NCBI GenBank assembly: GCA_964608465.1
Contig: CAZSNI010000002.1
Span: 23,273-87,272, forward strand
From: an uncultured Candidatus Saccharibacteria bacterium
Lineage (GTDB): Bacteria; Patescibacteriota; Minisyncoccia; Phycocordibacterales; DATDWN01
Direction of reading: 5' to 3'
DNA: 64,000 nt
The translations under genes were made by a program, and so were the position numbers. A model generated the notes under the pieces. The model was given only the letters and a program-made list of their open reading frames with translations, was not told where the DNA came from and made no database searches. Positions 10,011 to 61,297 of this stretch are shown here, in pieces; position 1 is the stretch's first letter; the number at the start of each line of letters is the position of its first letter.

Positions 10011-10076
10011 CAATAGACATAAACATTTTCCTTTTATAAACTAGTACGGGTTGTACACAAAACAGGAGTGAGTCGA

Positions 10077-10337
10077 ATGAACGATATCCCAGGAGAGAAG
10101 ACTCAGGGTGGTGAGGAAGCGGCACCACTTCAAGGTGAGAAGGTGGTGAGGCGTCTCCCGCAAGAGATGAATGGAGCCACAATCGAAACTATCGTCGAGA
10201 TAGTGGCGCGGAACACCCAACAATCCGTCACTTGGAGGGTCGTTGACGGTGAACCTACGGTTTTCACCACCGGCGACGTGTACGCTGTTCTGCGGGAGCT
10301 TCGGCACAAGCTTCCTCGCGAATATCGGCGAACATAG
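10077..10337 (+). CDS. GC-rich cassette A, ORF A1: hypothetical 86-aa protein
   Basis: ACAGGAG SD 8 nt before ATG 10077 (the ORF track starts at GTG 10068). G/C-ending codons contrast with the flanks. Confidence 0.55.
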   Translation: MNDIPGEKTQGGEEAAPLQGEKVVRRLPQEMNGATIETIVEIVARNTQQSVTWRVVDGEPTVFTTGDVYAVLRELRHKLPREYRRT

Positions 10338-10399
10338 ACGCTCCGACAATTTTTTCAGCCTCGATGCTACGTGCATCGGGGCTGTCGCTTTATAAACTA

Positions 10400-10427
10400 T
10401 TGACAGGAGAAATAATCGGTATATCAT
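10400..10427 (+). promoter_or_regulatory. Sigma70-type promoter of ORF A2
   Basis: TTGACA (10400-10405), 16 nt, TATCAT (10422-10427). Confidence 0.55.
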
Positions 10428-10457
10428 TTTTATGGGGTAACACAGGAGGGTAACGAT

Positions 10458-10700
10458 ATGTTTCGTGATGCGGATGTACGTCGTTCAGTCGCAAATGAGA
10501 TGTCAGTTCTCGCAATGCAGGGTCTTTCAACTTCGGATGCCGTTACTTTCGGCAACCGTAGTGCTCGACTCGCCATCGCAAGGACTGAAATCTGGAGTGG
10601 CGGAAGGGGTAACGGAACCCTGAACGTCGATCTCGACTGCACGGGGTGCATGCTCGTGAGTACGTGTCCTGGGGACAAATGTCCCCGTAAGGACTGCTAG
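10458..10700 (+). CDS. GC-rich cassette A, ORF A2: hypothetical 80-aa protein with Cys-rich C-terminus
   Basis: ACAGGAGGG SD 7 nt before the ATG. C-terminal sequence LDCTGCMLVSTCPGDKCPRKDC. Terminator follows. Confidence 0.55.
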   Translation: MFRDADVRRSVANEMSVLAMQGLSTSDAVTFGNRSARLAIARTEIWSGGRGNGTLNVDLDCTGCMLVSTCPGDKCPRKDC

Positions 10701-10719
10701 CTAGTCCGATTTTCGTTTT
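10691..10719 (+). terminator. Terminator of cassette A
   Basis: GGACT-GCTAGCT-AGTCC hairpin overlapping the A2 stop, then GATTTTCGTTTT. Confidence 0.55.
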
Positions 10720-10816
10720 CCGTGTTGGATGTTCCGTAAGTGTGATTAGGCGCGCTATCCCAGGCGTGCCTTCACTTTGCCCAAAATTTTTGCGAAAAAA
10801 CTTTTTTAAGAATAGA

Positions 10817-11305
10817 ATGAAATATATGTGGGAAAGAAATTTTACTAAATGGGTGGGGTCTAGAACTTCGGTTGTGTTACACACAATTTTTTTTCTCGCT
10901 ACATTCTCAATGATTTTGTTTGGCTTTAATACTGAGACTGTTTTACTCATACTTACCACCGTTGTTTCTCTTGAGGCAATTTATCTTTCTATTTTTATAC
11001 AGATGACAGTAAATCAGAACACAGAAAGTCTAGAAATAGTCGAGGAAGATCTGGAAGATATCGTAGAGGAAGTCGGGGAGATTTCAGAAGATATTGACGA
11101 GATTCAGCATGATGTGGATGAAATTCAGGAAGATGTTGAAGAGATTTCGGAAGATGTGGAGGAGATTCAGCACGATGTGGATGAAATTCAGGAAGACGGT
11201 GAGCAGGAGGATATTGAATCAAAAAAAGATAATCAGAAACTTGAAAATATTGAAATCATTTTGAAGAAGTTAATTGTGGAGATAGAAAACTTAAAGAAGA
11301 AATAA
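10817..11305 (+). CDS. DUF1003-like two-TM membrane protein with acidic repeat tail (162 aa from ATG 10817)
   Basis: WVGSRTSVVLHTIFF...VVSLEAIYLSIFIQMTVNQ resembles the DUF1003 core. The upstream part of track ORF 10742 lies in cassette A terminator DNA. Confidence 0.55.
   Translation: MKYMWERNFTKWVGSRTSVVLHTIFFLATFSMILFGFNTETVLLILTTVVSLEAIYLSIFIQMTVNQNTESLEIVEEDLEDIVEEVGEISEDIDEIQHDVDEIQEDVEEISEDVEEIQHDVDEIQEDGEQEDIESKKDNQKLENIEIILKKLIVEIENLKKK
11099..11200 (+). repeat. In-frame 63-nt tandem repeat (about 1.6 copies) encoding EIQHDVDEIQEDVEEISEDVE
   Basis: GAGATTCAGCATGATGTGGATGAAATTCAGGAAGA at 11099 recurs at 11162 with 1 mismatch in 35 nt. Confidence 0.8.
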
Positions 11306-13187: not shown

Positions 13188-14069
13188 ATGAAAAAAATAT
13201 TACTAATGAGTTTTTTGGGTGTTTTATTCTTTAACACCGCTTCTGCACATGCGACTATTTTAGTTGAAGTGCCATCTACTTTTGTTTTAAAAGTTGGTGA
13301 GGGTGCTGGGGTTAAGAATTATCAAAACATGGAGATTGATTTTCAATCTATACAAAATGATGACAGTGAATGTAAAAAAGGCACAACACCATGTCCACTA
13401 GGAAATCCAGTAAACACATCAAACCCTAGAAAGGAGGTTGTACTTTATGTAACTACTCCGGGTGGTTGTGGACCTGACGCTGATTCTAGGTGTTTAGGTG
13501 CTCCAGGGTTTGCAAATACATTTACTATCAATGAAGGAGATAGTGAAGATGTTCTTGGGATTGAGATCTTTGTATCAAATGTAACAGACAACTCTGCAAC
13601 ATTTAGAATCGCAATGAAAACAAATGACTCAGATGATGATTCAGATGATAAAGTTATCAAGCCTATGCCTCCAGTGATAAAAGTCACTTCAGTTACTGGT
13701 GCACAAGGCACTATAAACCGTGTGGATAAAATTATCATTTGCCCAAACGGTGAAAGTGATGACAACTGTTCAGTTTGTTCAAAGGGTGAGTGTAAGCCAG
13801 AGACAACACCTGCTAGTCCACGAAAACTAGGTGAGCCAGTTAGCGTCACAAATCCTCCAGTTTTTGAACTTAAGGGCGACGAGACGCTTGTTTCAGCTGT
13901 TAAAGTGGAAGGAAATGCCAGTTCTACTGCTGGATATGAAATAAAAGCTAAAAGAAAAGCTAGACTACTGTTTTTGTTCCCAGTTAATCCAGAAATAAAA
14001 TATTCTGTAAATGCTAGTGGAACAGCGTCTGTATCGGCAAGACCTTGGTGGAACTTTCTAGCGTGGTAA
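13188..14069 (+). CDS. Secreted hypothetical protein (293 aa)
   Basis: Signal peptide MKKILLMSFLGVLFFNTASAHA, a Cys-containing mature part and a DSDDDSDD acidic linker. Confidence 0.6.
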   Translation: MKKILLMSFLGVLFFNTASAHATILVEVPSTFVLKVGEGAGVKNYQNMEIDFQSIQNDDSECKKGTTPCPLGNPVNTSNPRKEVVLYVTTPGGCGPDADSRCLGAPGFANTFTINEGDSEDVLGIEIFVSNVTDNSATFRIAMKTNDSDDDSDDKVIKPMPPVIKVTSVTGAQGTINRVDKIIICPNGESDDNCSVCSKGECKPETTPASPRKLGEPVSVTNPPVFELKGDETLVSAVKVEGNASSTAGYEIKAKRKARLLFLFPVNPEIKYSVNASGTASVSARPWWNFLAW

Positions 14070-15272: not shown

Positions 15273-15845
15273 ATGAAAAAAGTCTACATTCTTGCGGGAC
15301 ATCCAGATACACAAAGTATGTGTAACGATTTGGCAGCTGCGTATGGAAAGGGAGCTACTTCTACTGGAAATGAAGTTAGACTCACAAAACTTTCAGAAAT
15401 GAAGTTTGATCCAATACTTCACTGTGGTTATAGGTGCATCCAAGAACTAGAGCCGGACTTAAAAAAATTTCAGGAGGATGTTAGATGGTGTGATCACTTT
15501 GTTATCATCTACCCATCGTGGTGGTCTACTATGCCAGCATTACTAAAAGGACTTTTTGATCGTGTGTGGTTGCCTGGTTTTGCATATAAATTTTTACCAA
15601 ACGGTTTGGGGTGGAATAAGTTACTAAAGGGGAGAACTGCAAGAATTTTCGTTACTTCTGACTCGCTTCCTATACTTGCGAGGTTTCTTTTTGGTGATAA
15701 TACAAACGAAATACAAGATGGAATTCTTTGGTTTGCAGGTTTTAATGCAAAAGTTCATAAAGTAGGACCGATGAAGAAGATTTCAGAAGAAAAGAAGGGA
15801 CAGTGGGCTAAAAAGTTTGAGGCATTTGGTGAGAAAGTGTATTAA
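15273..15845 (+). CDS. NAD(P)H dehydrogenase (quinone)/flavodoxin-like fold protein (190 aa)
   Basis: MKKVYILAGHPD...HFVIIYPSWWSTMPALLKGLFDRV is typical of the Flavodoxin_2/KefF-like family. Confidence 0.7.
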   Translation: MKKVYILAGHPDTQSMCNDLAAAYGKGATSTGNEVRLTKLSEMKFDPILHCGYRCIQELEPDLKKFQEDVRWCDHFVIIYPSWWSTMPALLKGLFDRVWLPGFAYKFLPNGLGWNKLLKGRTARIFVTSDSLPILARFLFGDNTNEIQDGILWFAGFNAKVHKVGPMKKISEEKKGQWAKKFEAFGEKVY

Positions 15846-15864: not shown

Positions 15865-15893
15865 TTGACAATCTAGTTTTAATATGATAGGGT
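15865..15893 (+). promoter_or_regulatory. Promoter of cassette C
   Basis: TTGACA (15865-15870), 17 nt, TAGGGT (15888-15893). The -10 element is weak. Confidence 0.4.
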
Positions 15894-15956
15894 TCTGTCA
15901 GAGTCACCAAGAATGGTGATGTCGATTCAGAGCCTAGAGGCTCATGGAGTGTTCAG

Positions 15957-16823
15957 ATGAAGATGTCCAGTTTCGTCATTGCGTTGGCCATGTTGGCTAC
16001 CGCAAGCGCCGCAAGCGCACAGTCGTCCGCGAAGATCGGTGACCTGGTTTCCGGAGTTCCGGTCGCTGGCGACCTCGTCGTCTGCAACTGGAACGGAAGC
16101 AACGTCGACGCCGACTACAAGATCGACAAGGCGGGTTCGCCCACCGTGTCGCTCCTCGTTTCGCCCAACACGTGCAAGAAGGCGGGCGAAGCTCCGACGC
16201 TCACGTTCGTCACCTTCACGGTGCAGAACATCGCGGCCGGACGGCAGGGGATGAGTCACCTCGCAACTGGCAACGGCCAGACGCAGGTCAACTTCCCCGG
16301 AAACGCTGTCTCGCTCACGATGAACTGCGCCAATGGCTTTCGGGTCATGGCGTCACACACCGTCACCGCGCTGACTGGTCCCGCCGGTCCGGCCGGCCCC
16401 CAGGGTCCGGCAGGTCCGACAGGCGCAACAGGTGCCACCGGTGCCACTGGCGCGAAAGGCGACCCGGGTGACGTTCTGACCTGGCCGACCATGGCTCCCG
16501 CATCCGTCGATTTGGGACTCCCGATGGTTCTTCCGAAGCCCTTGTCCCTGACCATTCCGAGACCGGAGGGCGTGCATGATCTGCTCTACTACTGGTCGCA
16601 GTACAGGGTGGCGATTCGTTGGAGCTTCAACCTCGATGGGTCAGTCAAGTGTCGACAGGTGGACTGGAGTTTTCATCCGGAACACGCCTTCGACACTCTC
16701 CAGGCCCTCACCATCGGTGTTCAGTGGTGGGACTCGAGTTCGGCGAAGGGTGGTCCCTGGCCGATTGCATGGAACGTCAACATTCCGTGCAACACTTCAC
16801 TCCTGACGCCAGGCAAGTACTAG
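15957..16823 (+). CDS. GC-rich cassette C ORF: secreted protein with collagen-like Gly-X-Y tract (288 aa)
   Basis: Signal peptide MKMSSFVIALAMLATASAASAQ. GPAGPAGPQGPAGPTGATGATGATGAKGDPGD is encoded at 16377-16472. GGAG lies 7 nt before the ATG. Hand count gives 39/60 GC at 16021-16080. Confidence 0.75.
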   Translation: MKMSSFVIALAMLATASAASAQSSAKIGDLVSGVPVAGDLVVCNWNGSNVDADYKIDKAGSPTVSLLVSPNTCKKAGEAPTLTFVTFTVQNIAAGRQGMSHLATGNGQTQVNFPGNAVSLTMNCANGFRVMASHTVTALTGPAGPAGPQGPAGPTGATGATGATGAKGDPGDVLTWPTMAPASVDLGLPMVLPKPLSLTIPRPEGVHDLLYYWSQYRVAIRWSFNLDGSVKCRQVDWSFHPEHAFDTLQALTIGVQWWDSSSAKGGPWPIAWNVNIPCNTSLLTPGKY

Positions 16824-16856
16824 CCTCGCGGCGCTCGCGCCGTTCGTTCATTCTTT

Positions 16857-16897
16857 CCGGCCCCGTGCAGCACATGCTGTAGGGGCCGGTTTTCTTT
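16857..16897 (+). terminator. Terminator of cassette C
   Basis: CCGGCCCC...GGGGCCGG 8-bp stem followed by TTTTCTTTT. Confidence 0.7.
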
Positions 16898-16925
16898 TAC
16901 ACAAAATATTTAGTATTATTAATAT

Positions 16926-17468
16926 ATGAATATCGAACTCAATCACATATTACTTTTTATTCATTTGGTTTCGCTTGTTATGGGATTTGGTGCAGTTATG
17001 GTTATAGATACATTTGGCCTGTTGTGGTTACTTAAAAAAGTAAAACTATCATTTGTTCAACAGGTGGCAAATACAACTCAACCTCTTATATGGATCGGAT
17101 GGTCACTACTTGTTTTAACCGGAATTCCTCTAATCGTTATGAAAGGTGGAGTGAGTGGACTTTCCATGATTAAAATATTTGCTGTACTTTTGCTTGGTGT
17201 GAATGGTGTATATTTGCACATAATTAAGAAGAGTATGGATAACATAAATGACAACTCTGTTATGCCTAGCTTGGCTAAATTCAGGATCACACTAGCTAGC
17301 TTTATTTCTCAGGCAGGATGGTGGACTGCAGTAGTAATTGGTTTTTTAAACAACAAACTAAAAGATAATGCTCCTAAAGTAGAGGACCCGTTTGTAATTA
17401 TAATTCCTGTCGTCATATTTGTTGTTTTTATTGCAACAGCTGGAGAATTGATTTTCCGAAAAAAATAA
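16926..17468 (+). CDS. Hypothetical polytopic membrane protein (180 aa)
   Basis: Four to five hydrophobic segments; host-like AT-rich codons. Confidence 0.6.
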   Translation: MNIELNHILLFIHLVSLVMGFGAVMVIDTFGLLWLLKKVKLSFVQQVANTTQPLIWIGWSLLVLTGIPLIVMKGGVSGLSMIKIFAVLLLGVNGVYLHIIKKSMDNINDNSVMPSLAKFRITLASFISQAGWWTAVVIGFLNNKLKDNAPKVEDPFVIIIPVVIFVVFIATAGELIFRKK

Positions 17469-17483
17469 GTCATATTAAGAAGC

Positions 17484-18482
17484 ATGAAATTATCCATAGG
17501 AATTGTTGGTCTTCCAAACGTCGGCAAATCGACGCTTTTTAATGCACTTACAAAAAAATCTGTTCCTGCAGAAAACTATCCATTCTGTACTATTGATCCC
17601 TCTGTAGGGATTGTTCCAGTTCCAGATGAGAGAGTGCAAAAACTTTCAGACTTTTCTAAATCAGCAAAAACTATTCCAGCAGTAATTGAGTTTGTTGATA
17701 TTGCAGGTCTGGTTAAAGGAGCTTCAGCAGGTGAAGGACTTGGAAACAAGTTTTTGTCTAATATTCGTGAAGTAGATGCAATACTAGAGATGGTAAGAGT
17801 GTTTGAAGACAAAGATATTTTGCATGTACACGGGGAAGTGAATCCGCTCTCTGACATTGATGTTATAAACTATGAGCTAATTTTGGCTGATTCAGAAACT
17901 ATCACAAAAAGAATCAGTAATTTGGGTAGAGAAGTAAAACAAGGGAAGAAAGAAGCAGTTTTTGAAAATGAAGTTTTAGAAAAAATTCTAGAAACACTGA
18001 AAACAGGAAAGCTGGCAAATACTCTTGCGTTGACTCCAGAAGAGAATGAAGTATTGAAAAGTATGCATTTGCTTACAGCAAAGCCAATTTTGTATGCACT
18101 CAATACTTCAGAAGCTAGTGTAAACAAACTAGATGTTGCTTCACAGGTTCCAGGACCATATGTGGTTATAGACCCTGTGTTCGAAAAGGGTTTTGAAGAT
18201 TTGATCAAAAAAGCTTATGAAACTTTGGGACTTATTACATATTTTACAACCGGAGAGGACGAAACAAGAGCATGGACTATTGAAAAAGGTTGGACAGCAC
18301 CGCTAGCAGGAACAGCGATACACACAGACTTTAAGGATAAGTTTATTCGTGCAGAAGTTGTTCACTGTGACGACTTACTAGATTCTGGCTCATACGGAGT
18401 AGCGAGAGAGAAGGGGAAGGTGAGAACTGAAGGAAAGGAATACATTGTTAAAGATGGAGATGTAATTGAGTTTAGAATTTAA
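17484..18482 (+). CDS. ychF: Redox-regulated ATPase YchF (Obg-family GTPase-like), 332 aa
   Basis: G1 motif GIVGLPNVGKSTLFNALT, FCTIDP, and DIAGLVKGAS. Confidence 0.85.
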   Translation: MKLSIGIVGLPNVGKSTLFNALTKKSVPAENYPFCTIDPSVGIVPVPDERVQKLSDFSKSAKTIPAVIEFVDIAGLVKGASAGEGLGNKFLSNIREVDAILEMVRVFEDKDILHVHGEVNPLSDIDVINYELILADSETITKRISNLGREVKQGKKEAVFENEVLEKILETLKTGKLANTLALTPEENEVLKSMHLLTAKPILYALNTSEASVNKLDVASQVPGPYVVIDPVFEKGFEDLIKKAYETLGLITYFTTGEDETRAWTIEKGWTAPLAGTAIHTDFKDKFIRAEVVHCDDLLDSGSYGVAREKGKVRTEGKEYIVKDGDVIEFRI

Positions 18483-18494
18483 TCCAAAGACTAC

Positions 18495-18523
18495 TTGACA
18501 GTTATTAAATATTAGTGTATACA
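18495..18523 (+). promoter_or_regulatory. Promoter of cassette D
   Basis: TTGACA (18495-18500), 17 nt, TATACA (18518-18523). Confidence 0.55.
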
Positions 18524-18543
18524 CAGACACAGGAGGATCATCG

Positions 18544-18828
18544 ATGGAAAGAACGTTTCCGATTTACTGGGACGCGGCAGTGTGTCACGTCTCCGACCCC
18601 AACAACCCGCACGTCGTCGGGAAGGGCGGCAGCATCGAAGCCGCAACAGGCGACCTGTACATTCAGATGTACGGAATCACGTTCAAAGACGTTACACCGT
18701 ACACACCGCTCGGTGACAACATCCCCGGAATTCTCGCCATCAAACAGCGGGAAAATGAAGAAGGTCAGGAGTTGCCTCCGTTGACGGTTCGGTACGGCGA
18801 TGAAGTCGAAGAAGAAGTCGCGGCCTAA
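18544..18828 (+). CDS. GC-rich cassette D ORF: hypothetical 94-aa acidic protein
   Basis: ACAGGAGGA SD 7 nt before the ATG. Hand count gives 38/60 GC at 18561-18620. G/C-ending codons. Confidence 0.6.
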   Translation: MERTFPIYWDAAVCHVSDPNNPHVVGKGGSIEAATGDLYIQMYGITFKDVTPYTPLGDNIPGILAIKQRENEEGQELPPLTVRYGDEVEEEVAA

Positions 18829-18843
18829 CTAAAGGTCGTGAAT

Positions 18844-18886
18844 GAGCCCAGCTATTTGTAGATTCAATCTATGAAAAGCTGGGCTC
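18844..18886 (+). terminator. Hairpin ending cassette D (no clear T-run)
   Basis: GAGCCCAGC (18844-18852) pairs with GCTGGGCTC (18878-18886) across a 25-nt loop. Confidence 0.4.
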
Positions 18887-18909
18887 TTAACGTATGCTAT
18901 AATTTAAAC

Positions 18910-43120: not shown

Positions 43121-45022
43121 ATGAGTAAAATTATTGGAATAGATCTTGGAACAACAAACTCTGCTGTCGCAATAATGGAAGCAGGACAACCTAAAATATT
43201 AGAGAACTCAGAAGGTGCAAGAACAACACCTTCTATAATCGCAGTGTCTAAAACTGGTGAAAGACTAGTTGGTCTACTGGCAAAAAGACAAGCAGTAACA
43301 AATCCAAAAAATACTGTTTTTGGAATTAAAAGATTTATCGGCCACACATTCGAAGACGAAGCAGTGCAAAAAGATAAAGGCATCGTACCTTTTGAAATTT
43401 CAAAATCATCAACAGGTGGAGTAAAAGTAAAAATGGGTGAAAAGGAATCTAGTCCTGAAGAAATTTCTGCGATGATTCTTTCTAAAATCAAGGCAGATGT
43501 TGAAGCAAAAATAGGAGAGAAAGTAACTCAGGCTATCATTACTGTGCCTGCTTACTTTAACGATGCACAAAGACAAGCAACAAAAGACGCTGGAGCAATC
43601 GCTGGTCTAGAAGTTCTAAGAATTATAAACGAACCAACAGCTGCAGCGCTTGCATACGGCTTTGATAAAGGAAAGAAAGAAGAAAAAATTGTTGTATTCG
43701 ACTTTGGAGGTGGAACTTTTGATGTTTCAGTTCTAGAAGTAGGGGACTCAGTTATAGAAGTAAAATCAACAGACGGAGACTCACACCTAGGAGGTAAAGA
43801 TATTGATCAAAAAATCATTAACTTCCTTGCTGATGAATTCAAAAAAGAATCAGGTATAGACCTTCGAGGGGACACGCTAGCACTACAAAGACTAGACGAA
43901 GCTGCAGAAAAAGCAAAGATAGAGCTTTCAACTGCAATGGAATCTGAGGTTAACATTCCATTCATTACATCAGATAGTAGTGGTCCAAGACACCTTCTTA
44001 TTAAAATTACTCGAGCAAAACTTGAAGAACTTACAGCTGAGTTTATTGACCGAGCAATGGCAATAACAAAGCGAGCGATGGACGCTTCTGGTTTCTCTAC
44101 TTCACAGATTAACGAAGTTATTCTAGTTGGAGGACAAACAAGAATGCCTAAAATGGCTGAAAAAGTAAAAGAGTACTTTGCTAAGGAACCAAACAAATCT
44201 ATCAACCCTGACGAAGTTGTGGCTCTAGGAGCGGCAATTCAAGGGGGGATACTAGCAGGGGACGTCAAAGATGTTCTACTTCTAGATGTTATTCCACTTT
44301 CTCTTGGTATTGAAACTATGGGAGGTGTGGCAACTAAACTAGTTGAGAGAAATACGACTATCCCAGCATCACGCTCACAAGTATTCTCTACTGCAGCAGA
44401 CAACCAGACATCTGTAGAAATACATATCGTTCAAGGTGAAAGAGCAATGGCAAGTGACAACAAGTCTCTTGGAAGATTTATCTTAGACGGTATTCCACCT
44501 GCACCACGAGGTATGCCTCAAGTAGAGGTTATGTTTGACGTGGACGCTAACGGAATCCTATCAGTTAAAGCAAAAGATAAAGCAACAAACAAAGAGCAAT
44601 CTATTAGAATTGAAGCAAGATCTAGTCTATCCAAAGAAGAGATTGAGAAGATGCAAAAAGATGCAGAAATGCACGCACAAGACGACTTGAAGAAAAAGGA
44701 TCTTGTTGAAGCTAAGAATATCGGTGAACAACTTATCTACACAGCTGAAAAAGCTATGAAAGATGCGGGAGACAAAATTACTCCAGAAATAAGAACTGGT
44801 GTAGAGAACAAAGTAACTGATCTTAAAAACGTATTAGCAAATACATCTGCAGATCTAGAAGCTATTAAGAAAGCTACTGTTGAGCTTTCAAACGAGACAT
44901 CTAAGATCGGTGAAGCTATAAACAAGGCAAATACGGACGCTGGCACACAAACTCCGCCAAATACAGAAAACCCTGTGAGAGACGCCGACTTCGAAGAAAA
45001 GAAACCTGAAGAAGGAAAATAG
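43121..45022 (+). CDS. dnaK: Molecular chaperone DnaK (Hsp70)
   Basis: [20 protein letters not shown], and [11 protein letters not shown]. Confidence 0.95.
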
Positions 45023-45032
45023 TATATGACAA

Positions 45033-45062
45033 AGCCCGCGGGAGCGTGCTCCATCACGGGCT
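45033..45062. terminator. GC-rich hairpin between the dnaK stop and the end of cassette F
   Basis: AGCCCG...CGGGCT outer stem with inner GGAGC-GT-GCTCC. T-run is poor on both strands. Confidence 0.4.
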
Positions 45063-45092
45063 GAATATGTACCCTTGAAAACAGTTGCCGAA

Positions 45093-45359
45093 CTAGAGAC
45101 CAGCCTCTTTCCGGGCTATGTACCACGCGTTATCGTGCGGGAACTTGTTCTGACGCCGCATCTGGAAGTAAAGACGTCTTGCGACATCCAGGCGGTCGCG
45201 ACGAATGATCTTCCGCACGGTGTAGTCGCAGGCGGGACACTTTGCCTCGATGAGCCTGGCTTCGGGAACTTCCGAAGGTGTGTTGGTTGCAGACGTTCGA
45301 CTAGAAACATCGAAGGCAAAACGGCAGTTCGGGCAATCAAATCGCATAGCTTTCATCAT
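45093..45359 (-). CDS. GC-rich cassette F ORF F2: 88-aa zinc-ribbon protein
   Basis: MMKAMRFDCPNCRF...AKCPACDY (CxxC...CxxC). The ATG overlaps the F1 stop (ATGA). GAGGAAG SD upstream. Confidence 0.6.
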   Translation of the reverse strand: MMKAMRFDCPNCRFAFDVSSRTSATNTPSEVPEARLIEAKCPACDYTVRKIIRRDRLDVARRLYFQMRRQNKFPHDNAWYIARKEAGL

Positions 45360-45688
45360 CTTCCTCTCTGTTTGAGACGAACCATCATCTTGGCGAAACC
45401 CAGTGACTCCAAGGGCCCTTTGCCTGAGGCGAGAGCCTCTGCAACATGAGCCCTCATTGCCCTACGATCATCCACACGAGCGGGCAACTGCTGTCTGTGC
45501 TGAGCGATGATGGTCGCACCACAGAATTCAGACTGGCATTTGACCCTAACGATGATCGTCAGGATACCAAGCATGTAGTCTCTGTCCTCGTGCAGTTCTG
45601 TAACATCTCGCTCGGCGAGCAACGTGGTCCGGCACCTCTCGCAGTGGAGCTGAATGGGGAAGCTCAAACTTGCAAGTTGCTGATACAC
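45356..45688 (-). CDS. GC-rich cassette F ORF F1: ~110-aa zinc-ribbon protein
   Basis: AGGAG lies 7 nt before GTG 45688 (track ORF starts at TTG 45724). Cys pattern HCERCR...KCQSEFC. Confidence 0.55.
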   Translation of the reverse strand: MYQQLASLSFPIQLHCERCRTTLLAERDVTELHEDRDYMLGILTIIVRVKCQSEFCGATIIAQHRQQLPARVDDRRAMRAHVAEALASGKGPLESLGFAKMMVRLKQRGR

Positions 45689-45735
45689 AGCCTGGCTCCT
45701 AGAATAAGGGTTTGACGGAAACAAATTCCACTCTT

Positions 45736-45764
45736 AGACTACATTATTGTCAATATCTGGTCAA
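45736..45764 (-). promoter_or_regulatory. Promoter of cassette F (minus strand)
   Basis: Minus strand TTGACC (45764-45759), 17 nt, TAGTCT (45741-45736). Confidence 0.4.
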
Positions 45765-45801
45765 CTGTACTAAAAACTTAAAATCCTTATAATAAACCCA
45801 T

Positions 45802-56995: not shown

Positions 56996-57012
56996 GCTGT
57001 TGGAGTAACAGC

Positions 57013-57153
57013 ATGAAAAGCGACATTAAAGCAGGGATTTTTATCGTTCTGGTAGTGATCAGTTTCCAGCTTGCGTACATCGCATCGGACCTCAACAAGA
57101 TCGTCGGGATGATGAAGTCTGGGCAGGCACAACAAACCACTTCGCAGAAGTAG
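57013..57153 (+). CDS. GC-rich cassette H ORF H1: 46-aa single-TM peptide
   Basis: Own translation: MKSDIKAGIFIVLVVISFQLAYIASDLNKIVGMMKSGQAQQTTSQK. GGAG lies in the loop of hairpin GCTGT-TGGAGTA-ACAGC, 7 nt before the ATG. Confidence 0.5.
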   Translation: MKSDIKAGIFIVLVVISFQLAYIASDLNKIVGMMKSGQAQQTTSQK

Positions 57154-57161
57154 GAGGGCAG

Positions 57162-57437
57162 ATGGGACTCGTGAGTCTGAATCCGCTCCTCATGGAGCCA
57201 GGACGTAAGAACATGGGACTTCGGGTCCTGTGCGCGCTTCTCAGCCTGGTTCTTCCGGGCGTCGTGCTCTACTTCGTGCCAGTTCTACTGTACGGGGTTG
57301 TGGCTCTCGGAATGCTCGTCGCCATGCTGACATACAGCTGGCTGGCTGGCATCGTAGCGCTTCCGGTGATTTATCTCTCGTTCACTACAGTCACCTGGAT
57401 GATGCTCCAATTTCTCATGAAGAAGTACAAGCTCTAG
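57162..57437 (+). CDS. GC-rich cassette H ORF H2: 91-aa three-TM membrane protein
   Basis: TAGGAGGG SD (overlapping the H1 stop) 3-4 nt before the ATG. Hydrophobic segments LRVLCALLSLVLPGVVLYFVPVLLYGVVALGMLVAML... Confidence 0.6.
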   Translation: MGLVSLNPLLMEPGRKNMGLRVLCALLSLVLPGVVLYFVPVLLYGVVALGMLVAMLTYSWLAGIVALPVIYLSFTTVTWMMLQFLMKKYKL

Positions 57438-57451
57438 TAGCTGTACTCCTC

Positions 57452-57500
57452 GGTCGATACGATCAGGTCCCACAGACCATCGTGTCGGCCTTTTCGTTTA
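57452..57500 (+). terminator. Terminator of cassette H
   Basis: GGTCGATACGAT (57452-57463) pairs with ATCGTGTCGGCC (57479-57490) with two G-U pairs, then TTTTCGTTT. Confidence 0.6.
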
Positions 57501-57517
57501 TCTAAGAAGTTGAGTTT

Positions 57518-58459
57518 CTACTGGTTAAGATACTCAAGGGTTGTCTGAACAAGAGTCTGAACATCTTCAAATCTACCTTCTTGTGTGGAACCTAAAACAG
57601 TAACAATAATCGGTTTTCCAAGACTTGGATCAAAAGCAATAACAAGATTCCCTCCGGCCATATCTGTGTATCCAGTTTTAGATGCAAATAACCCAGGAAT
57701 AGAATTTATTATGTCGTTTGTATTTTTTGCATTGTGCTTCTTACTATTTGAATCAATGCTTATATTTGTGTATTTTGTAGCTTCCAGAACTTCTGGCTGA
57801 TTTCTAATCATGTACTTCATTAAGTTGTTTACATCAACTGCAGAACCATAGCCTCCACTAACATTACCGACATCTAGACCAGTCTCATTGACGAAAAATG
57901 TCTGTGCCAAGCCAAGTTCTTTTGCACGATTATTCATTTTTTCTATAAAGTCTTTTCTTCCCAAGTCGTAGTCTTTTGAATTTAGTTTTACAGCGCCGAT
58001 TACGGATGCAACAGAACGCGCACCATCGTTAGATGAAGTAACTAGAGAAAAATCGAGTAATTCTTTAAGGTTCCATGACTCGTTAGCCAACAAACCTGAA
58101 TCCCCCTCTTCTCTAAGGAACTCACTTTTAACTGTTATGTTTGAATTCTTTGGCAAAAGTTCTGTTGCCACAAGAGCCGTCATTAGCTTAGTTATTGATG
58201 CAAGTGGCAATTGAACTCCTTCATTTTTTGCATACAAAACTCTTTTATCTGCCACATCGTAAACCATAACCGATTTAGCTTTCACATTTACATTTTCAAA
58301 TACAGCCAAACTTTTCTTTTCGACTTTTGCTTCTACGATTTTCTGTTGTTTACTTTGCTCTGAATTCTGAAGCAAAAGAAACGTCATAAAAATAACTGCC
58401 AAAACAAGTAGAATATTGAATATAAATAATTGTCTAGAAATTTTTTGTTCGTGCTCCAT
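57518..58459 (-). CDS. D-alanyl-D-alanine carboxypeptidase (S11 family PBP)
   Basis: SxxK ASITKLMT, SxN SSNDGA, and KTG SKTGYT. Confidence 0.85.
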   Translation of the reverse strand: MEHEQKISRQLFIFNILLVLAVIFMTFLLLQNSEQSKQQKIVEAKVEKKSLAVFENVNVKAKSVMVYDVADKRVLYAKNEGVQLPLASITKLMTALVATELLPKNSNITVKSEFLREEGDSGLLANESWNLKELLDFSLVTSSNDGARSVASVIGAVKLNSKDYDLGRKDFIEKMNNRAKELGLAQTFFVNETGLDVGNVSGGYGSAVDVNNLMKYMIRNQPEVLEATKYTNISIDSNSKKHNAKNTNDIINSIPGLFASKTGYTDMAGGNLVIAFDPSLGKPIIVTVLGSTQEGRFEDVQTLVQTTLEYLNQ

Positions 58460-60064: not shown

Positions 60065-60093
60065 TTGACATTATATGATTTGTATAGTAGTAT
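60065..60093 (+). promoter_or_regulatory. Promoter of cassette J1
   Basis: TTGACA (60065-60070), 17 nt, TAGTAT (60088-60093). Same register relative to the conserved leader as the J2 promoter. Confidence 0.55.
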
Positions 60094-60102
60094 TATTTCA
60101 AA

Positions 60103-60162
60103 GGTAGACCTGTGTACCTATATTCACCGGTCGTCCGAAAAGACGAAAAACTTGGAGTGGCG
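60103..60162 (+). promoter_or_regulatory. Conserved 5' leader, copy 1 (J1)
   Basis: GGTAGACCTGTGTACCTATATTCACCGGTCGTCCGAAAAGACGAAAAACTTGGAG is about 44/54 identical by eye to 60706-60759. Confidence 0.6.
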
Positions 60163-60570
60163 ATGTTTAACATGGATCAGATGGTTCCTGTAGTGGCACT
60201 CGTGATCATAACGAGCCTCGTTACGTGGATCGTGAGCACTTCTCTGGCAAAGCGTCGGGCAGAACAGCAGTCTGGCACCGACAACAAGCTGAAAGAGCGA
60301 AAGGTCTACGAGATCACCACGCTCAGACAGATACGTTGGAAGTTCTACGCTCTCACCGCTTGGAGCGATAACTTGCTAGCCTATGAGACGTCAGACGACA
60401 ACGCGAGTTACCTCAGAGTAGTGAACTCGAAAGGTGACGTACTCAGTAGTGTAACGTGTGATGCACGGCAGGAAGCGATCACTGTTCTGAACCATCCCGG
60501 CCAAGACTTCCGAGCCTTCCACATTCGATCCGTGGAAGATGTCGTTAGGTTCTTGGTCTTTGGAGAGTAA
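60163..60570 (+). CDS. GC-rich cassette J1 ORF: 135-aa N-terminally anchored protein
   Basis: GGAG lies 5 nt before ATG 60163 (track ORF starts at GTG 60112 inside the leader). TM segment VPVVALVIITSLVTWIV, then a ~100-aa soluble part. Confidence 0.6.
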   Translation: MFNMDQMVPVVALVIITSLVTWIVSTSLAKRRAEQQSGTDNKLKERKVYEITTLRQIRWKFYALTAWSDNLLAYETSDDNASYLRVVNSKGDVLSSVTCDARQEAITVLNHPGQDFRAFHIRSVEDVVRFLVFGE

Positions 60571-60757: not shown

Positions 60758-61240
60758 ATGGTTAGCTTCAATGAATCGCAGTGGGTCGTGGTGATCGGGC
60801 TCCTCTTCATCACCTTCATCGCAGCCTGGACTATGTCCATGCACTTCGAGAGGGCTAGAGAGGTGCGCCGCAAGATGGAACTTGAAGCCAGTCGCAAGAA
60901 AAATGAGGAGGTCGAAGATCTTCTCGAAAAGAAGCGGCGCAGAAGGATCGATCACGAAATCAACACCCTCGGCCAACTGGCAAACCTGATCGCGAAGGTA
61001 AAGGTCTCACGCCTCAGCACCGAATCATGGCCAAGTGACGGCAAGCTTGCAGGCAAAAGCCATATTCGCCTTATCTACAAAGGAACCCTCGCCTGCAAAA
61101 TATTCTGTGACGCTGAATTGAAAAAGCTCATAGTACTTGACCAGGTAGTGGGCGGCATGAGTGAATGTGACATCGATCAGGCTCCTCGGGCCGTAGACCT
61201 GGCTCTACAGAAGCTGAGCGACTGGGACTATCTCCTCTAG
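60758..61240 (+). CDS. GC-rich cassette J2 ORF: 160-aa N-terminally anchored protein
   Basis: TAGGAG SD 7 nt before the ATG. TM segment WVVVIGLLFITFIAAW, a charged coiled segment, then a soluble part. No similarity to J1 seen by eye. Confidence 0.65.
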   Translation: MVSFNESQWVVVIGLLFITFIAAWTMSMHFERAREVRRKMELEASRKKNEEVEDLLEKKRRRRIDHEINTLGQLANLIAKVKVSRLSTESWPSDGKLAGKSHIRLIYKGTLACKIFCDAELKKLIVLDQVVGGMSECDIDQAPRAVDLALQKLSDWDYLL

Positions 61241-61256
61241 ATTTCAGCACCATCGC

Positions 61257-61297
61257 CCCGACGGGTTGCGCACAGCAACTCGTCGGGTGTTTTATTT
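61257..61297 (+). terminator. Terminator of J2 (conserved module), convergent with the GNAT gene
   Basis: Same CCCGACGGGTTGCGCACAGCAACTCGTCGGG hairpin followed by TGTTTTATTTT. Confidence 0.75.

Follow-up and report, generated by a model that had tools for sequence, protein, structure and literature searches.

Prokaryotic collagen-like proteins share a general organisation in which a collagen-like region (CLR) stands between an N-terminal and a C-terminal part (N-CLR-C), as reviewed in PMC8968730. The Legionella protein Lcl is a trimer that is anchored to the surface by its N-terminal end and carries its C-terminal head on a collagen stalk (PMC11162425). Here, we describe a gene of this layout in a 64-kb stretch of DNA (the window, by which the whole stretch is meant) from a bacterium of the Patescibacteria, Parcubacteria group, which has one named close relative, 'Parcubacteria bacterium C7867-003'. 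Together with its own promoter and terminator, the gene (15957-16823) forms a GC-rich cassette, which is probably best explained as a resident, module-swapping unit for a Sec-exported surface fibre with a collagen stalk. Our search of the literature found no paper linking collagen-like proteins to Patescibacteria. To our knowledge, partner recognition and attachment by the ultra-small bacteria of the candidate phyla radiation (CPR)/Patescibacteria are largely unknown outside a few cultivated Saccharibacteria.

The collagen-tract gene and its control signals

The open reading frame (ORF) at the centre of this work is almost certainly a real coding gene for a secreted collagen-tract protein, within a resident recombining cassette. 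The original prediction, made from the letters of the window, had allowed for a spurious ORF should homologues be lacking; homologues exist, so the ORF is not spurious. Between the window and its relative at locus L001 (related loci are numbered in this way), the N module shows purifying selection, with a nonsynonymous divergence (dN) of 0.035-0.07 and a synonymous divergence (dS) of 0.47-0.63 (dN/dS 0.06-0.15). The parts of the cassette are the following:

15865-15893, + strand: promoter, read from the sequence; -35 box TTGACA at 15865-15870, 17-nt spacer ending in TG-n (TG at 15885-15886), -10 box TAGGGT at 15888-15893
15894-15956, + strand: 5' leader with hairpins at about 15903-15920 and about 15927-15947 and the Shine-Dalgarno (SD) sequence GGAG at 15946-15949; the rise in GC begins here
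15957-16823, + strand: coding sequence (CDS) of the cassette, ATG start, 288 aa plus stop, collagen-like secreted protein
15957-16022, + strand: predicted Sec-type signal peptide, aa 1-22, ending in ASAASAQ; basic n-region, hydrophobic core and AxA-type site, judged by inspection
16001-16022, + strand: conserved 22-nt linker CGCAAGCGCCGCAAGCGCACAG, the 5' crossover zone of the N module
16023-16376, + strand: N module of type N_A, aa 23-140, with Cys 43, 73 and 124; beta-rich, possibly immunoglobulin (Ig)-like
16377-16469, + strand: collagen-like tract GPAGPAGPQGPAGPTGATGATGATGAKGDPG, aa 141-171; ten uninterrupted Gly-X-Y triplets, a putative triple-helix stalk and internal crossover zone
16470-16820, + strand: C module of type C_X, aa 172-288, with Cys 232 and 278; putative trimerising, ligand-binding head
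16828-16898, + strand: 3' trailer with a small hairpin (16828-16843), the terminator hairpin CCGGCCCC..GGGGCCGG (16857-16889) and a T-run (16890-16898); end of the GC-rich block

The protein agrees in its parts with the original prediction, which had described a 288-aa ORF with a signal peptide and a cysteine-containing N-domain, a Gly-X-Y tract of ten triplets and a Trp-rich C-domain. The N-terminus MKMSSFVIALAMLATASAASAQ is signal-peptide-like, and comparable leaders with AQ ends are present in every allele of the gene. The nucleotide pattern of the tract, (GGN N6)x10 GG, occurs once in the window and in none of 100 dinucleotide shuffles, and the C module holds 8 Trp in its 117 residues. At 15942-16882, the other frames and the opposite strand also contain many overlapping ORFs of 46-105 aa, which are not genes and arise because GC-rich sequence has few stop codons.

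The cassette is a monocistronic unit made of a strong promoter, a structured leader, the ORF and a strong terminator. The promoter and strong terminator that had been assigned to the gene are confirmed by its relatives: promoter, SD sequence and terminator are conserved in all nine complete loci, each of which keeps the promoter architecture TTGACA-17(..TGn)-TAnnnT. This strict pattern has just three matches in the 64 kb, the cassette promoter among them, and a generic promoter scanner missed it. Across the same nine loci the leader measures 43-81 nt and a hairpin ahead of the SD sequence is conserved; the z-score of the leader fold is -1.5 in the window and -2.0 to -2.7 in L001, L009 and L013. 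The terminator hairpin with its T-run has a predicted folding energy of -37.9 kcal/mol (z = -5.7), and homologous two-hairpin trailers are found in L001 (z = -7.9) and L013 (z = -6.6). An Rfam search of leader and trailer gave no match.

Module exchange at one chromosomal slot

The first protein search returned only two true relatives, P0001 and P0003, both in the same chromosomal slot as the window gene. Further loci came from genomes and metagenomes probed with the slot's conserved membrane protein, and from contigs reached through the 90%-identity YchF cluster. Same-slot cassettes were found in at least 12 backgrounds of related Patescibacteria, as 13 different alleles (carriers: the window, with identical L010-12; L001-8, L009, L013, L014, L024, L025, L026, L035-L038, L040-42 and L043-45). 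In the slot, yceG (on the - strand) is followed by a small ORF and a flavodoxin-like gene; then come the cassette, the gene for a membrane protein of 180 aa and ychF. The cassette is marked off on its two sides by:

15273-15845, + strand: upstream slot marker, flavodoxin-like gene (Flavodoxin_2/FMN_red, Pfam E = 4e-28), AT-rich and of ordinary composition
16926-17468, + strand: downstream slot marker, AT-rich gene for a multi-pass membrane protein of 180 aa; a transfer of the C module can take the 5' end of this gene along

The flavodoxin-like gene adjoins the cassette in every locus that extends to it. The slot neighbours in every locus are yceG, the flavodoxin-like gene, the membrane protein gene, ychF, a cupin gene and leuS, with no phage context. 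The sole cassette-less relative, L015, has 15 nt between its flanking genes. In the tree built from the flanks it is nested among the carriers (outside them in 7% of bootstraps), and loss is therefore the parsimonious reading of this empty slot. The cassette has long been resident at a single chromosomal site in an AT-rich Patescibacteria clade.

It is also the hypervariable locus of its neighbourhood. The N modules are of type A (window, L001), type B (L009, L013, L026, L035, L036, L038, L040) or a short Cys-rich type (L014, L043), and the C modules are of type X (window), W (L025, L026, L037, L040), Y (L001, L009, L024, L035, L038) or Z (L013, L014, L036, L043). The combinations A+X, A+Y, B+Y, B+Z, B+W and short+Z conflict with the tree of the flanks, where L013 groups with the window and L014 with L001. 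The flanking genes themselves do not tell a single history: the closest relative of L013 is the window by yceG (91%) and L001 by the membrane protein (85%) and ychF (95%). These conflicting relationships among the window, L001, L013 and L014 imply that recombination breakpoints cluster around the slot.

The C module of the window has relatives only in the C_W modules of L026, L040 and L025 (BLASTP E = 2e-5, 31% identity over 59 aa). The original prediction had considered that the C-domain might belong to a common family of the same lineage with similar GC; its distant relatives do occur only in the same lineage, but they share the high GC of the gene and not that of the genome. Modules C_Y and C_Z are related to each other (hhalign P = 9e-4), whereas C_X gave P = 0.11 and 0.6 against C_Y/C_Z, and the comparison of X/W with Y/Z stayed at control level. 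We also considered all C types as one diverged fold and rejected this view, as only the C_Y-C_Z and C_X-C_W links are supported.

The alignment of the window with L001 shows where one exchanged block begins and ends. Their N_A modules (that of L001 corresponding to P0001) are 87% identical in amino acids and 86% in nucleotides, compared with 72-75% nucleotide identity in the flanks, and their identity at four-fold degenerate sites is 0.64, against 0.28 expected. Along the alignment, identity of 60-78% rises to 82-95% across ~15,990-16,425, drops to 20-40% in the C module and is again ~73% past the terminator. The 5' edge of the elevated block is the 22-nt linker, which the window, L001 and L009 share with 100% identity, though L009 carries N_B. 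Its 3' edge lies mid-collagen, where the window and L001 share 16419-16441 and diverge beyond.

Two comparisons with L036 place crossovers at the other end of the protein. The flanks of L036 and L040 are 93% identical, and the two loci share 521 identical nucleotides from the promoter to mid-collagen, including N modules that are 100% identical in nucleotides; L036 then carries C_Z and L040 carries C_W, with the crossover in mid-collagen. L036 and L037 encode the same YchF protein and show almost no differences over 3.5 kb beyond a point ~300 nt into the membrane-protein gene. From mid-collagen to that point, ~300 nt inside the AT-rich downstream gene, they differ in the class of their C module and by 33 substitutions within 400 nt of AT-rich DNA (GC 0.32). 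The imported tract brought an AT-rich flank with it, and its donor was therefore another AT-rich member of the clade.

Clade members exchange N and C modules by homologous recombination, and the crossovers map to three conserved zones: where the signal peptide ends, within the collagen tract, and in the 3' untranslated region plus the first part of the following gene. Purifying selection acts on the modules. Between L013 and L036, C_Z retains 89% protein identity with four-fold sites near saturation (0.40 versus 0.33 expected). The locus is a clean natural case of module shuffling at defined linkers, in which the collagen tract doubles as a recombination joint.

Other sources of variation fit the alleles less well. 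Diversity-generating retroelements (DGRs) are common in CPR genomes, and variability in the cassette is concentrated in the terminal modules. It is nevertheless hardly conceivable that the gene is a DGR target or undergoes some other programmed variation of its C-terminal domain: no template-like repeat of the gene was found in the 64 kb (no search was aimed at a reverse transcriptase), the change consists of whole-module replacement with flank co-transfer and not of adenine-targeted point diversification, and identical alleles recur across many samples. Slippage at nonamer repeats, which had been proposed as a possible source of length variation, finds no support either. The repeats are present but weak (TRF scores 33-38, 66-90% matches, including a 9-mer x2 at 16000-16018), and no length variation was seen: alleles are identical over many contigs and samples. 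The tracts, of a Pro/Thr-rich or a Lys/Arg-Asp flavour, are mostly of 9-12 triplets, with an interrupted tract of 10+9 (19) triplets in L043. P0124, a candidate slippage variant, was rejected, as it reflects only an alternative start call.

Some further observations concern the slot and its surroundings. At 3299-4339 of L038, an intact 346-aa allele (N_B, mixed collagen and a C_Y-like module; GC at third codon positions, GC3, of 0.79) is uncalled in the source annotation, and GC-rich genes in such AT-rich genomes may be under-called by annotation in the same way. L024, L025, L026, L037 and L039, which are independent metagenome contigs, end within or beside the cassette; such ends fit alleles that co-exist in a population and break the assembly graph, though a GC-related drop in coverage could be an alternative cause. 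Just upstream of yceG, a 293-aa ORF of the window (13188-14069, + strand) has no Pfam match and no counterpart in L001, and ORFs of 287-308 aa occupy the equivalent position in L010, L035, L036 and L038. It is possible that this ORF is another variable gene close to the slot.

Origin and possible maintenance of the GC-rich block

Against Pfam PF01391 (Collagen), the window protein scores 24.0 bits, below the gathering cutoff of 27.2 bits, because its tract is half of the 60-residue model length; among the other alleles, L014 passes with 29.5 bits and the rest score 20.8-24.3. Pfam searches with six alleles at E <= 1 gave nothing besides Collagen, and no BclA_C or C1q/TNF-like domain. In NCBIfam and PHROGs, matches fall on the collagen tract alone: the NCBIfam Scl models reach 22.6 and 22.8 bits versus cutoffs of 325 and 400, and adhesin_Lcl reaches 19.2 bits versus a cutoff of 500, at aa 140-169 only. 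Sequence searches of the PDB with the N and C modules found none below E = 0.3, and none of the 120 'collagen' matches of the first protein search shares a non-collagen module with any allele. An exhaustive HMMER search with the collagen columns forced to insert states, whose power was limited by a library without the family's own modules, gave three weak repetitive matches (E >= 6e-6). One of these three covers Ig I-set repeats, those of P0123, which N_A matches weakly; as a lead, N_A may be an Ig-like sandwich. Word-index searches with the N and C modules missed even the 87%-identical P0001 and are uninformative.

These searches bear on a phage origin, since a part of a phage tail fibre had been among the identities first suggested for the gene. 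Phage fibres often have collagen-like tracts and swap their heads as modules, and many PHROG tail-fibre families match the protein. However, those matches do not extend beyond about aa 87-180, and they centre on 140-172, the Gly-X-Y tract. Viral contigs of IMG/VR scanned with C_X, C_Y, N_A and the 22-nt linker held no relatives, and tblastn found no module match in INPHARED phage genomes or in plasmids. With housekeeping neighbours in every locus, a Sec signal peptide and its own promoter and terminator, the cassette is very unlikely to be a domesticated tail-fibre or receptor-binding gene or a prophage remnant.

The composition of the cassette is its most conspicuous property. The CDS has a GC content of 0.619, with a maximum of 0.67 in 300-nt windows, and a GC3 of 0.751, whereas the 55 other ORFs of the window average 0.374 (sd 0.034) and 0.308 (sd 0.071), corresponding to z = 7.3 for GC and 6.2 for GC3. 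The strong contrast between about 65% in the gene and 35% in its flanks, as given by the original prediction, therefore stands, with 65% slightly high for a CDS mean of 62%. Codon usage resembles that of high-GC genomes (CCG 61%, AAG 91%, CAG 100%; no CTA, TTA, ATA, GTA or CAA). The amino-acid composition, taken without the collagen tract, has a fraction of 0.27 for Gly, Ala, Arg and Pro (GARP) and 0.21 for Phe, Tyr, Met, Ile, Asn and Lys (FYMINK), versus 0.20 and 0.325. All alleles have a GC of 0.56-0.63 and a GC3 of 0.65-0.89 in host contigs of 34-39% GC. Mean GC is 0.17-0.26 in the promoter and 0.51 immediately past the -10 box, and it falls from 0.64 to 0.14 at the T-run of the terminator; from these steps, the GC-rich block is the transcribed unit.

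The extreme composition, the donor-like codon usage and the sharp compositional edges speak for the recent horizontal acquisition of a single foreign gene, not yet ameliorated, from a genome of ~60-65% GC. The empty slot of L015 and an excess of strong-to-weak changes (S>W, from G or C to A or T) in one N_A copy can be added in its favour. The original prediction had likewise seen a single-gene island of foreign origin; in the sense of a recent acquisition by this genome, the comparison of loci contradicts it. The cassette occupies the same slot in at least 12 backgrounds whose flanks are saturated at four-fold sites (identity 0.37-0.48 versus 0.34-0.41 expected; GC at these sites, GC4, 0.04-0.23), and its native AT-rich promoter, leader, signal peptide and trailer with the 3' hairpins are conserved. 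Where two copies of a module are saturated at four-fold sites, both are still GC-rich, and the tract imported between L036 and L037 carried an AT-rich flank of the clade. Moreover, no integrase, repeats or tRNA were found at the cassette borders, and no GC-rich homologue was found. Such an acquisition is quite unlikely, and in its 'recent and genome-specific' form it is largely refuted.

Three pairs of modules give the saturation values. Four-fold identity is 0.26 (0.25 expected) for C_Y of L001 and L009, with GC4 of 0.53 and 0.64; 0.33 (0.34 expected) for N_B of L009 and L013, with GC4 of 0.76 and 0.82; and 0.36 (0.31 expected) for C_Z of L013 and L014, with GC4 of 0.86 and 0.64. In C_Z of L013 and L036, at GC3 0.86-0.89, S>W and weak-to-strong (W>S) changes are roughly symmetric, 12 to 9. 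As these saturated pairs are still GC-rich while donors lie within an AT-rich clade, maintenance on the cassette is the simplest reading of its GC-richness. The GC-richness looks maintained.

A different route to the same composition would be repeated import from an unseen GC-rich reservoir (a relative, a host or a mobile element), with modules that spread, decay and are replaced before they ameliorate. The spread of allele GC3 from 0.65 to 0.89 would fit such a cycle, as would the excess of S>W over W>S in N_A of L001 (16 to 4) and in C_Z of L014 (11 to 3), the GC-type amino-acid composition and the existence of a GC-rich relative of the clade, L032, with 62% GC. On the other hand, no reservoir sequence came up in any search, and the donor in the only fully resolved transfer was an AT-rich member of the clade. 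The S/W changes between L013 and L036 are symmetric at high GC, and the GC block coincides with the transcript, including a leader and a trailer that are conserved within the clade. We regard the reservoir as somewhat doubtful.

If the GC-richness is instead maintained, the evidence points to a force that acts on the transcript or on the cassette. Translational selection was rejected as the cause of the high GC3: genes of the ribosomal-protein region are not GC-rich, and it is unlikely because G- and C-ending codons are both enriched. Simple biased gene conversion is disfavoured because the GC edges match the transcript and not the recombination tracts; the co-transferred flank remains AT-rich. 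Tentatively, the cassette might stand at a compositional equilibrium of its own, with the transcribed unit actively held at a GC3 of ~0.8 in genomes whose neutral equilibrium is ~0.2-0.3. Selection on the RNA could provide such a force, through stability against AU-specific RNases or toxins or through the pacing of translation during export and assembly of the trimer; other possible sources are selection for transferability and a bias linked to transcription or recombination. Should the GC content be maintained and not re-imported, the usual reasoning that atypical GC means recent horizontal gene transfer would fail for this cassette, and an unrecognised selective or mutational force would be at work in reduced genomes.

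Other GC-enriched sequences occur in the window. The next most GC3-rich ORFs are 60112-60570 (152 aa, GC3 0.60) and 60758-61240 (160 aa, GC3 0.65), each with a predicted N-terminal transmembrane (TM) segment and a charged tail. They have their own TTGACA-17-TAnnnT promoters at 60065 and 60658, a similar leader, GGTA[GA]ACC.GTGTACC..ATTCA.CGG, in common, and a strong terminator at ~61250-61290. These ORFs at 60.1-61.3 kb may be further GC-enriched transcripts bounded by promoter and terminator, hinting at a 'GC-insulated' class in CPR genomes. An 800-bp patch of ~50% GC at 10021-10820 has no convincing gene and no Pfam or Rfam match; it is absent from the syntenic position in L001 and is the most divergent stretch relative to L010, which is otherwise 98-100% identical. 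Other patches of 48-51% GC, intergenic or with small ORFs, lie at 18461-18900, 44901-45780 and 57001-57540, with no noteworthy Rfam family at E <= 1. The first of them exceeds its equivalent spacer in L001 by ~300 bp, and the second contains an 88-aa zinc-ribbon-like ORF (45093-45359, - strand).

A candidate surface fibre among known collagen-like proteins

By analogy with other bacterial collagen-like proteins, the product of the cassette could well be a trimeric surface recognition or adhesion fibre, and the adhesin-like or fibre role put forward by the original prediction is a reasonable one. Lcl, Scl and BclA are trimeric lollipops whose helix is nucleated by a globular domain and whose ends serve for anchoring and binding; in the cassette protein, globular N and C modules lie on either side of the tract. 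Three chains would form a 'lollipop' fibre, whose C-terminal head would nucleate the trimer and the triple helix of ten triplets and would carry the binding specificity, while the N module would keep the fibre attached to the cell surface. Surface recognition molecules that evolve under diversifying or frequency-dependent selection typically show such a pattern of discrete swapped modules, and the exchangeable heads may be under such selection. Attachment to a partner or host cell or to a substrate, and escape from phages that use the fibre as receptor, are candidate roles.

The same gene could also encode a non-adhesive structural coat or spacer, such as a nap associated with the S-layer, whose variability would come from evasion of phages or predators with no specific binding. 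Its consensus promoter, stabilising leader hairpins and strong terminator resemble those of genes for abundant surface proteins, BclA-type naps are structural (PMC8968730), and one lineage has lost the cassette. Purifying selection and discrete module types, however, fit specific interactions at least as well. Although we consider a purely structural coat rather unlikely, nothing in the present evidence discriminates between it and an adhesin.

Several points weigh against a resident cassette for a collagen-stalk recognition fibre. Ten triplets, without hydroxyproline, make a short helix, and the window protein has no LPXTG motif, C-terminal TM segment or lipobox as an anchor. AlphaFold2 (AF2) models, with a mean predicted confidence (pLDDT) of 30 for the full protein (3-sequence alignment) and 43 for the C module, are unusable for the fold. 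Since the searches missed known relatives or used a library without the modules, the lack of homologues elsewhere is weak evidence, and a GC-rich reservoir outside the clade is possible. Moreover, the S>W excess in the N_A copy of L001 shows that some copies decay towards AT, which fits import followed by amelioration as well as maintenance. Finally, we infer host recognition from the pattern of variability only, and the episymbiont lifestyle named in the original prediction is an assumption. With these points in mind, the resident fibre cassette offers a concrete candidate recognition locus in CPR, being single and easily found, with heads that differ between near-identical strains.

Among described systems, Lcl of Legionella pneumophila is a close parallel: a secreted protein with an N-terminal surface region, a collagen stalk and a trimeric head that is proposed to nucleate the helix (PMC11162425), features that are predicted here. 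Its head, however, is a DUF1566 domain more than 97% conserved between strains, and Lcl varies in repeat number, whereas the heads of the cassette are orphan domains swapped wholesale on a tract of nearly fixed length. The streptococcal proteins Scl1/Scl2 (SclA/SclB) likewise combine a signal peptide, a hypervariable non-collagen domain and a collagen-like region. In these proteins, however, only an N-terminal V domain is present, anchoring is by LPXTG, and the collagen-like regions are long and variable; the cassette protein varies on both sides of its tract and has no LPXTG. BclA of Bacillus and BclA1-3 of Clostridioides share the N-CLR-C layout and Thr-rich triplets of the GPT/GAT type, and the C-terminal domain (CTD) of BclA drives stability (PMC8968730). 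BclA is nevertheless a spore protein with no Sec signal peptide, a C1q/TNF-like CTD and a CLR of highly polymorphic length, unlike the protein of this CPR bacterium. The cassette protein is thus an analogue and not a member of the Lcl, Scl or BclA families, because it fails their defining sequence features. As in phage tail fibres, a collagen tract joins exchangeable modules that recombine at conserved linkers, but the cassette has no sequence kinship with these fibres outside Gly-X-Y and no phage context, and its product is chromosomally encoded and Sec-exported. In Pasteuria ramosa, an obligate associate, the polymorphic collagen-like proteins (Pcl7/PCL) are proposed attachment determinants in coevolution (PMC7743900, PMC10987987, PMC13233619). 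The Pasteuria proteins belong to a large multigene family with no reported compositional anomaly, whereas the GC-rich cassette described here is present once per genome, in a fixed slot, and exchanges its modules between lineages.

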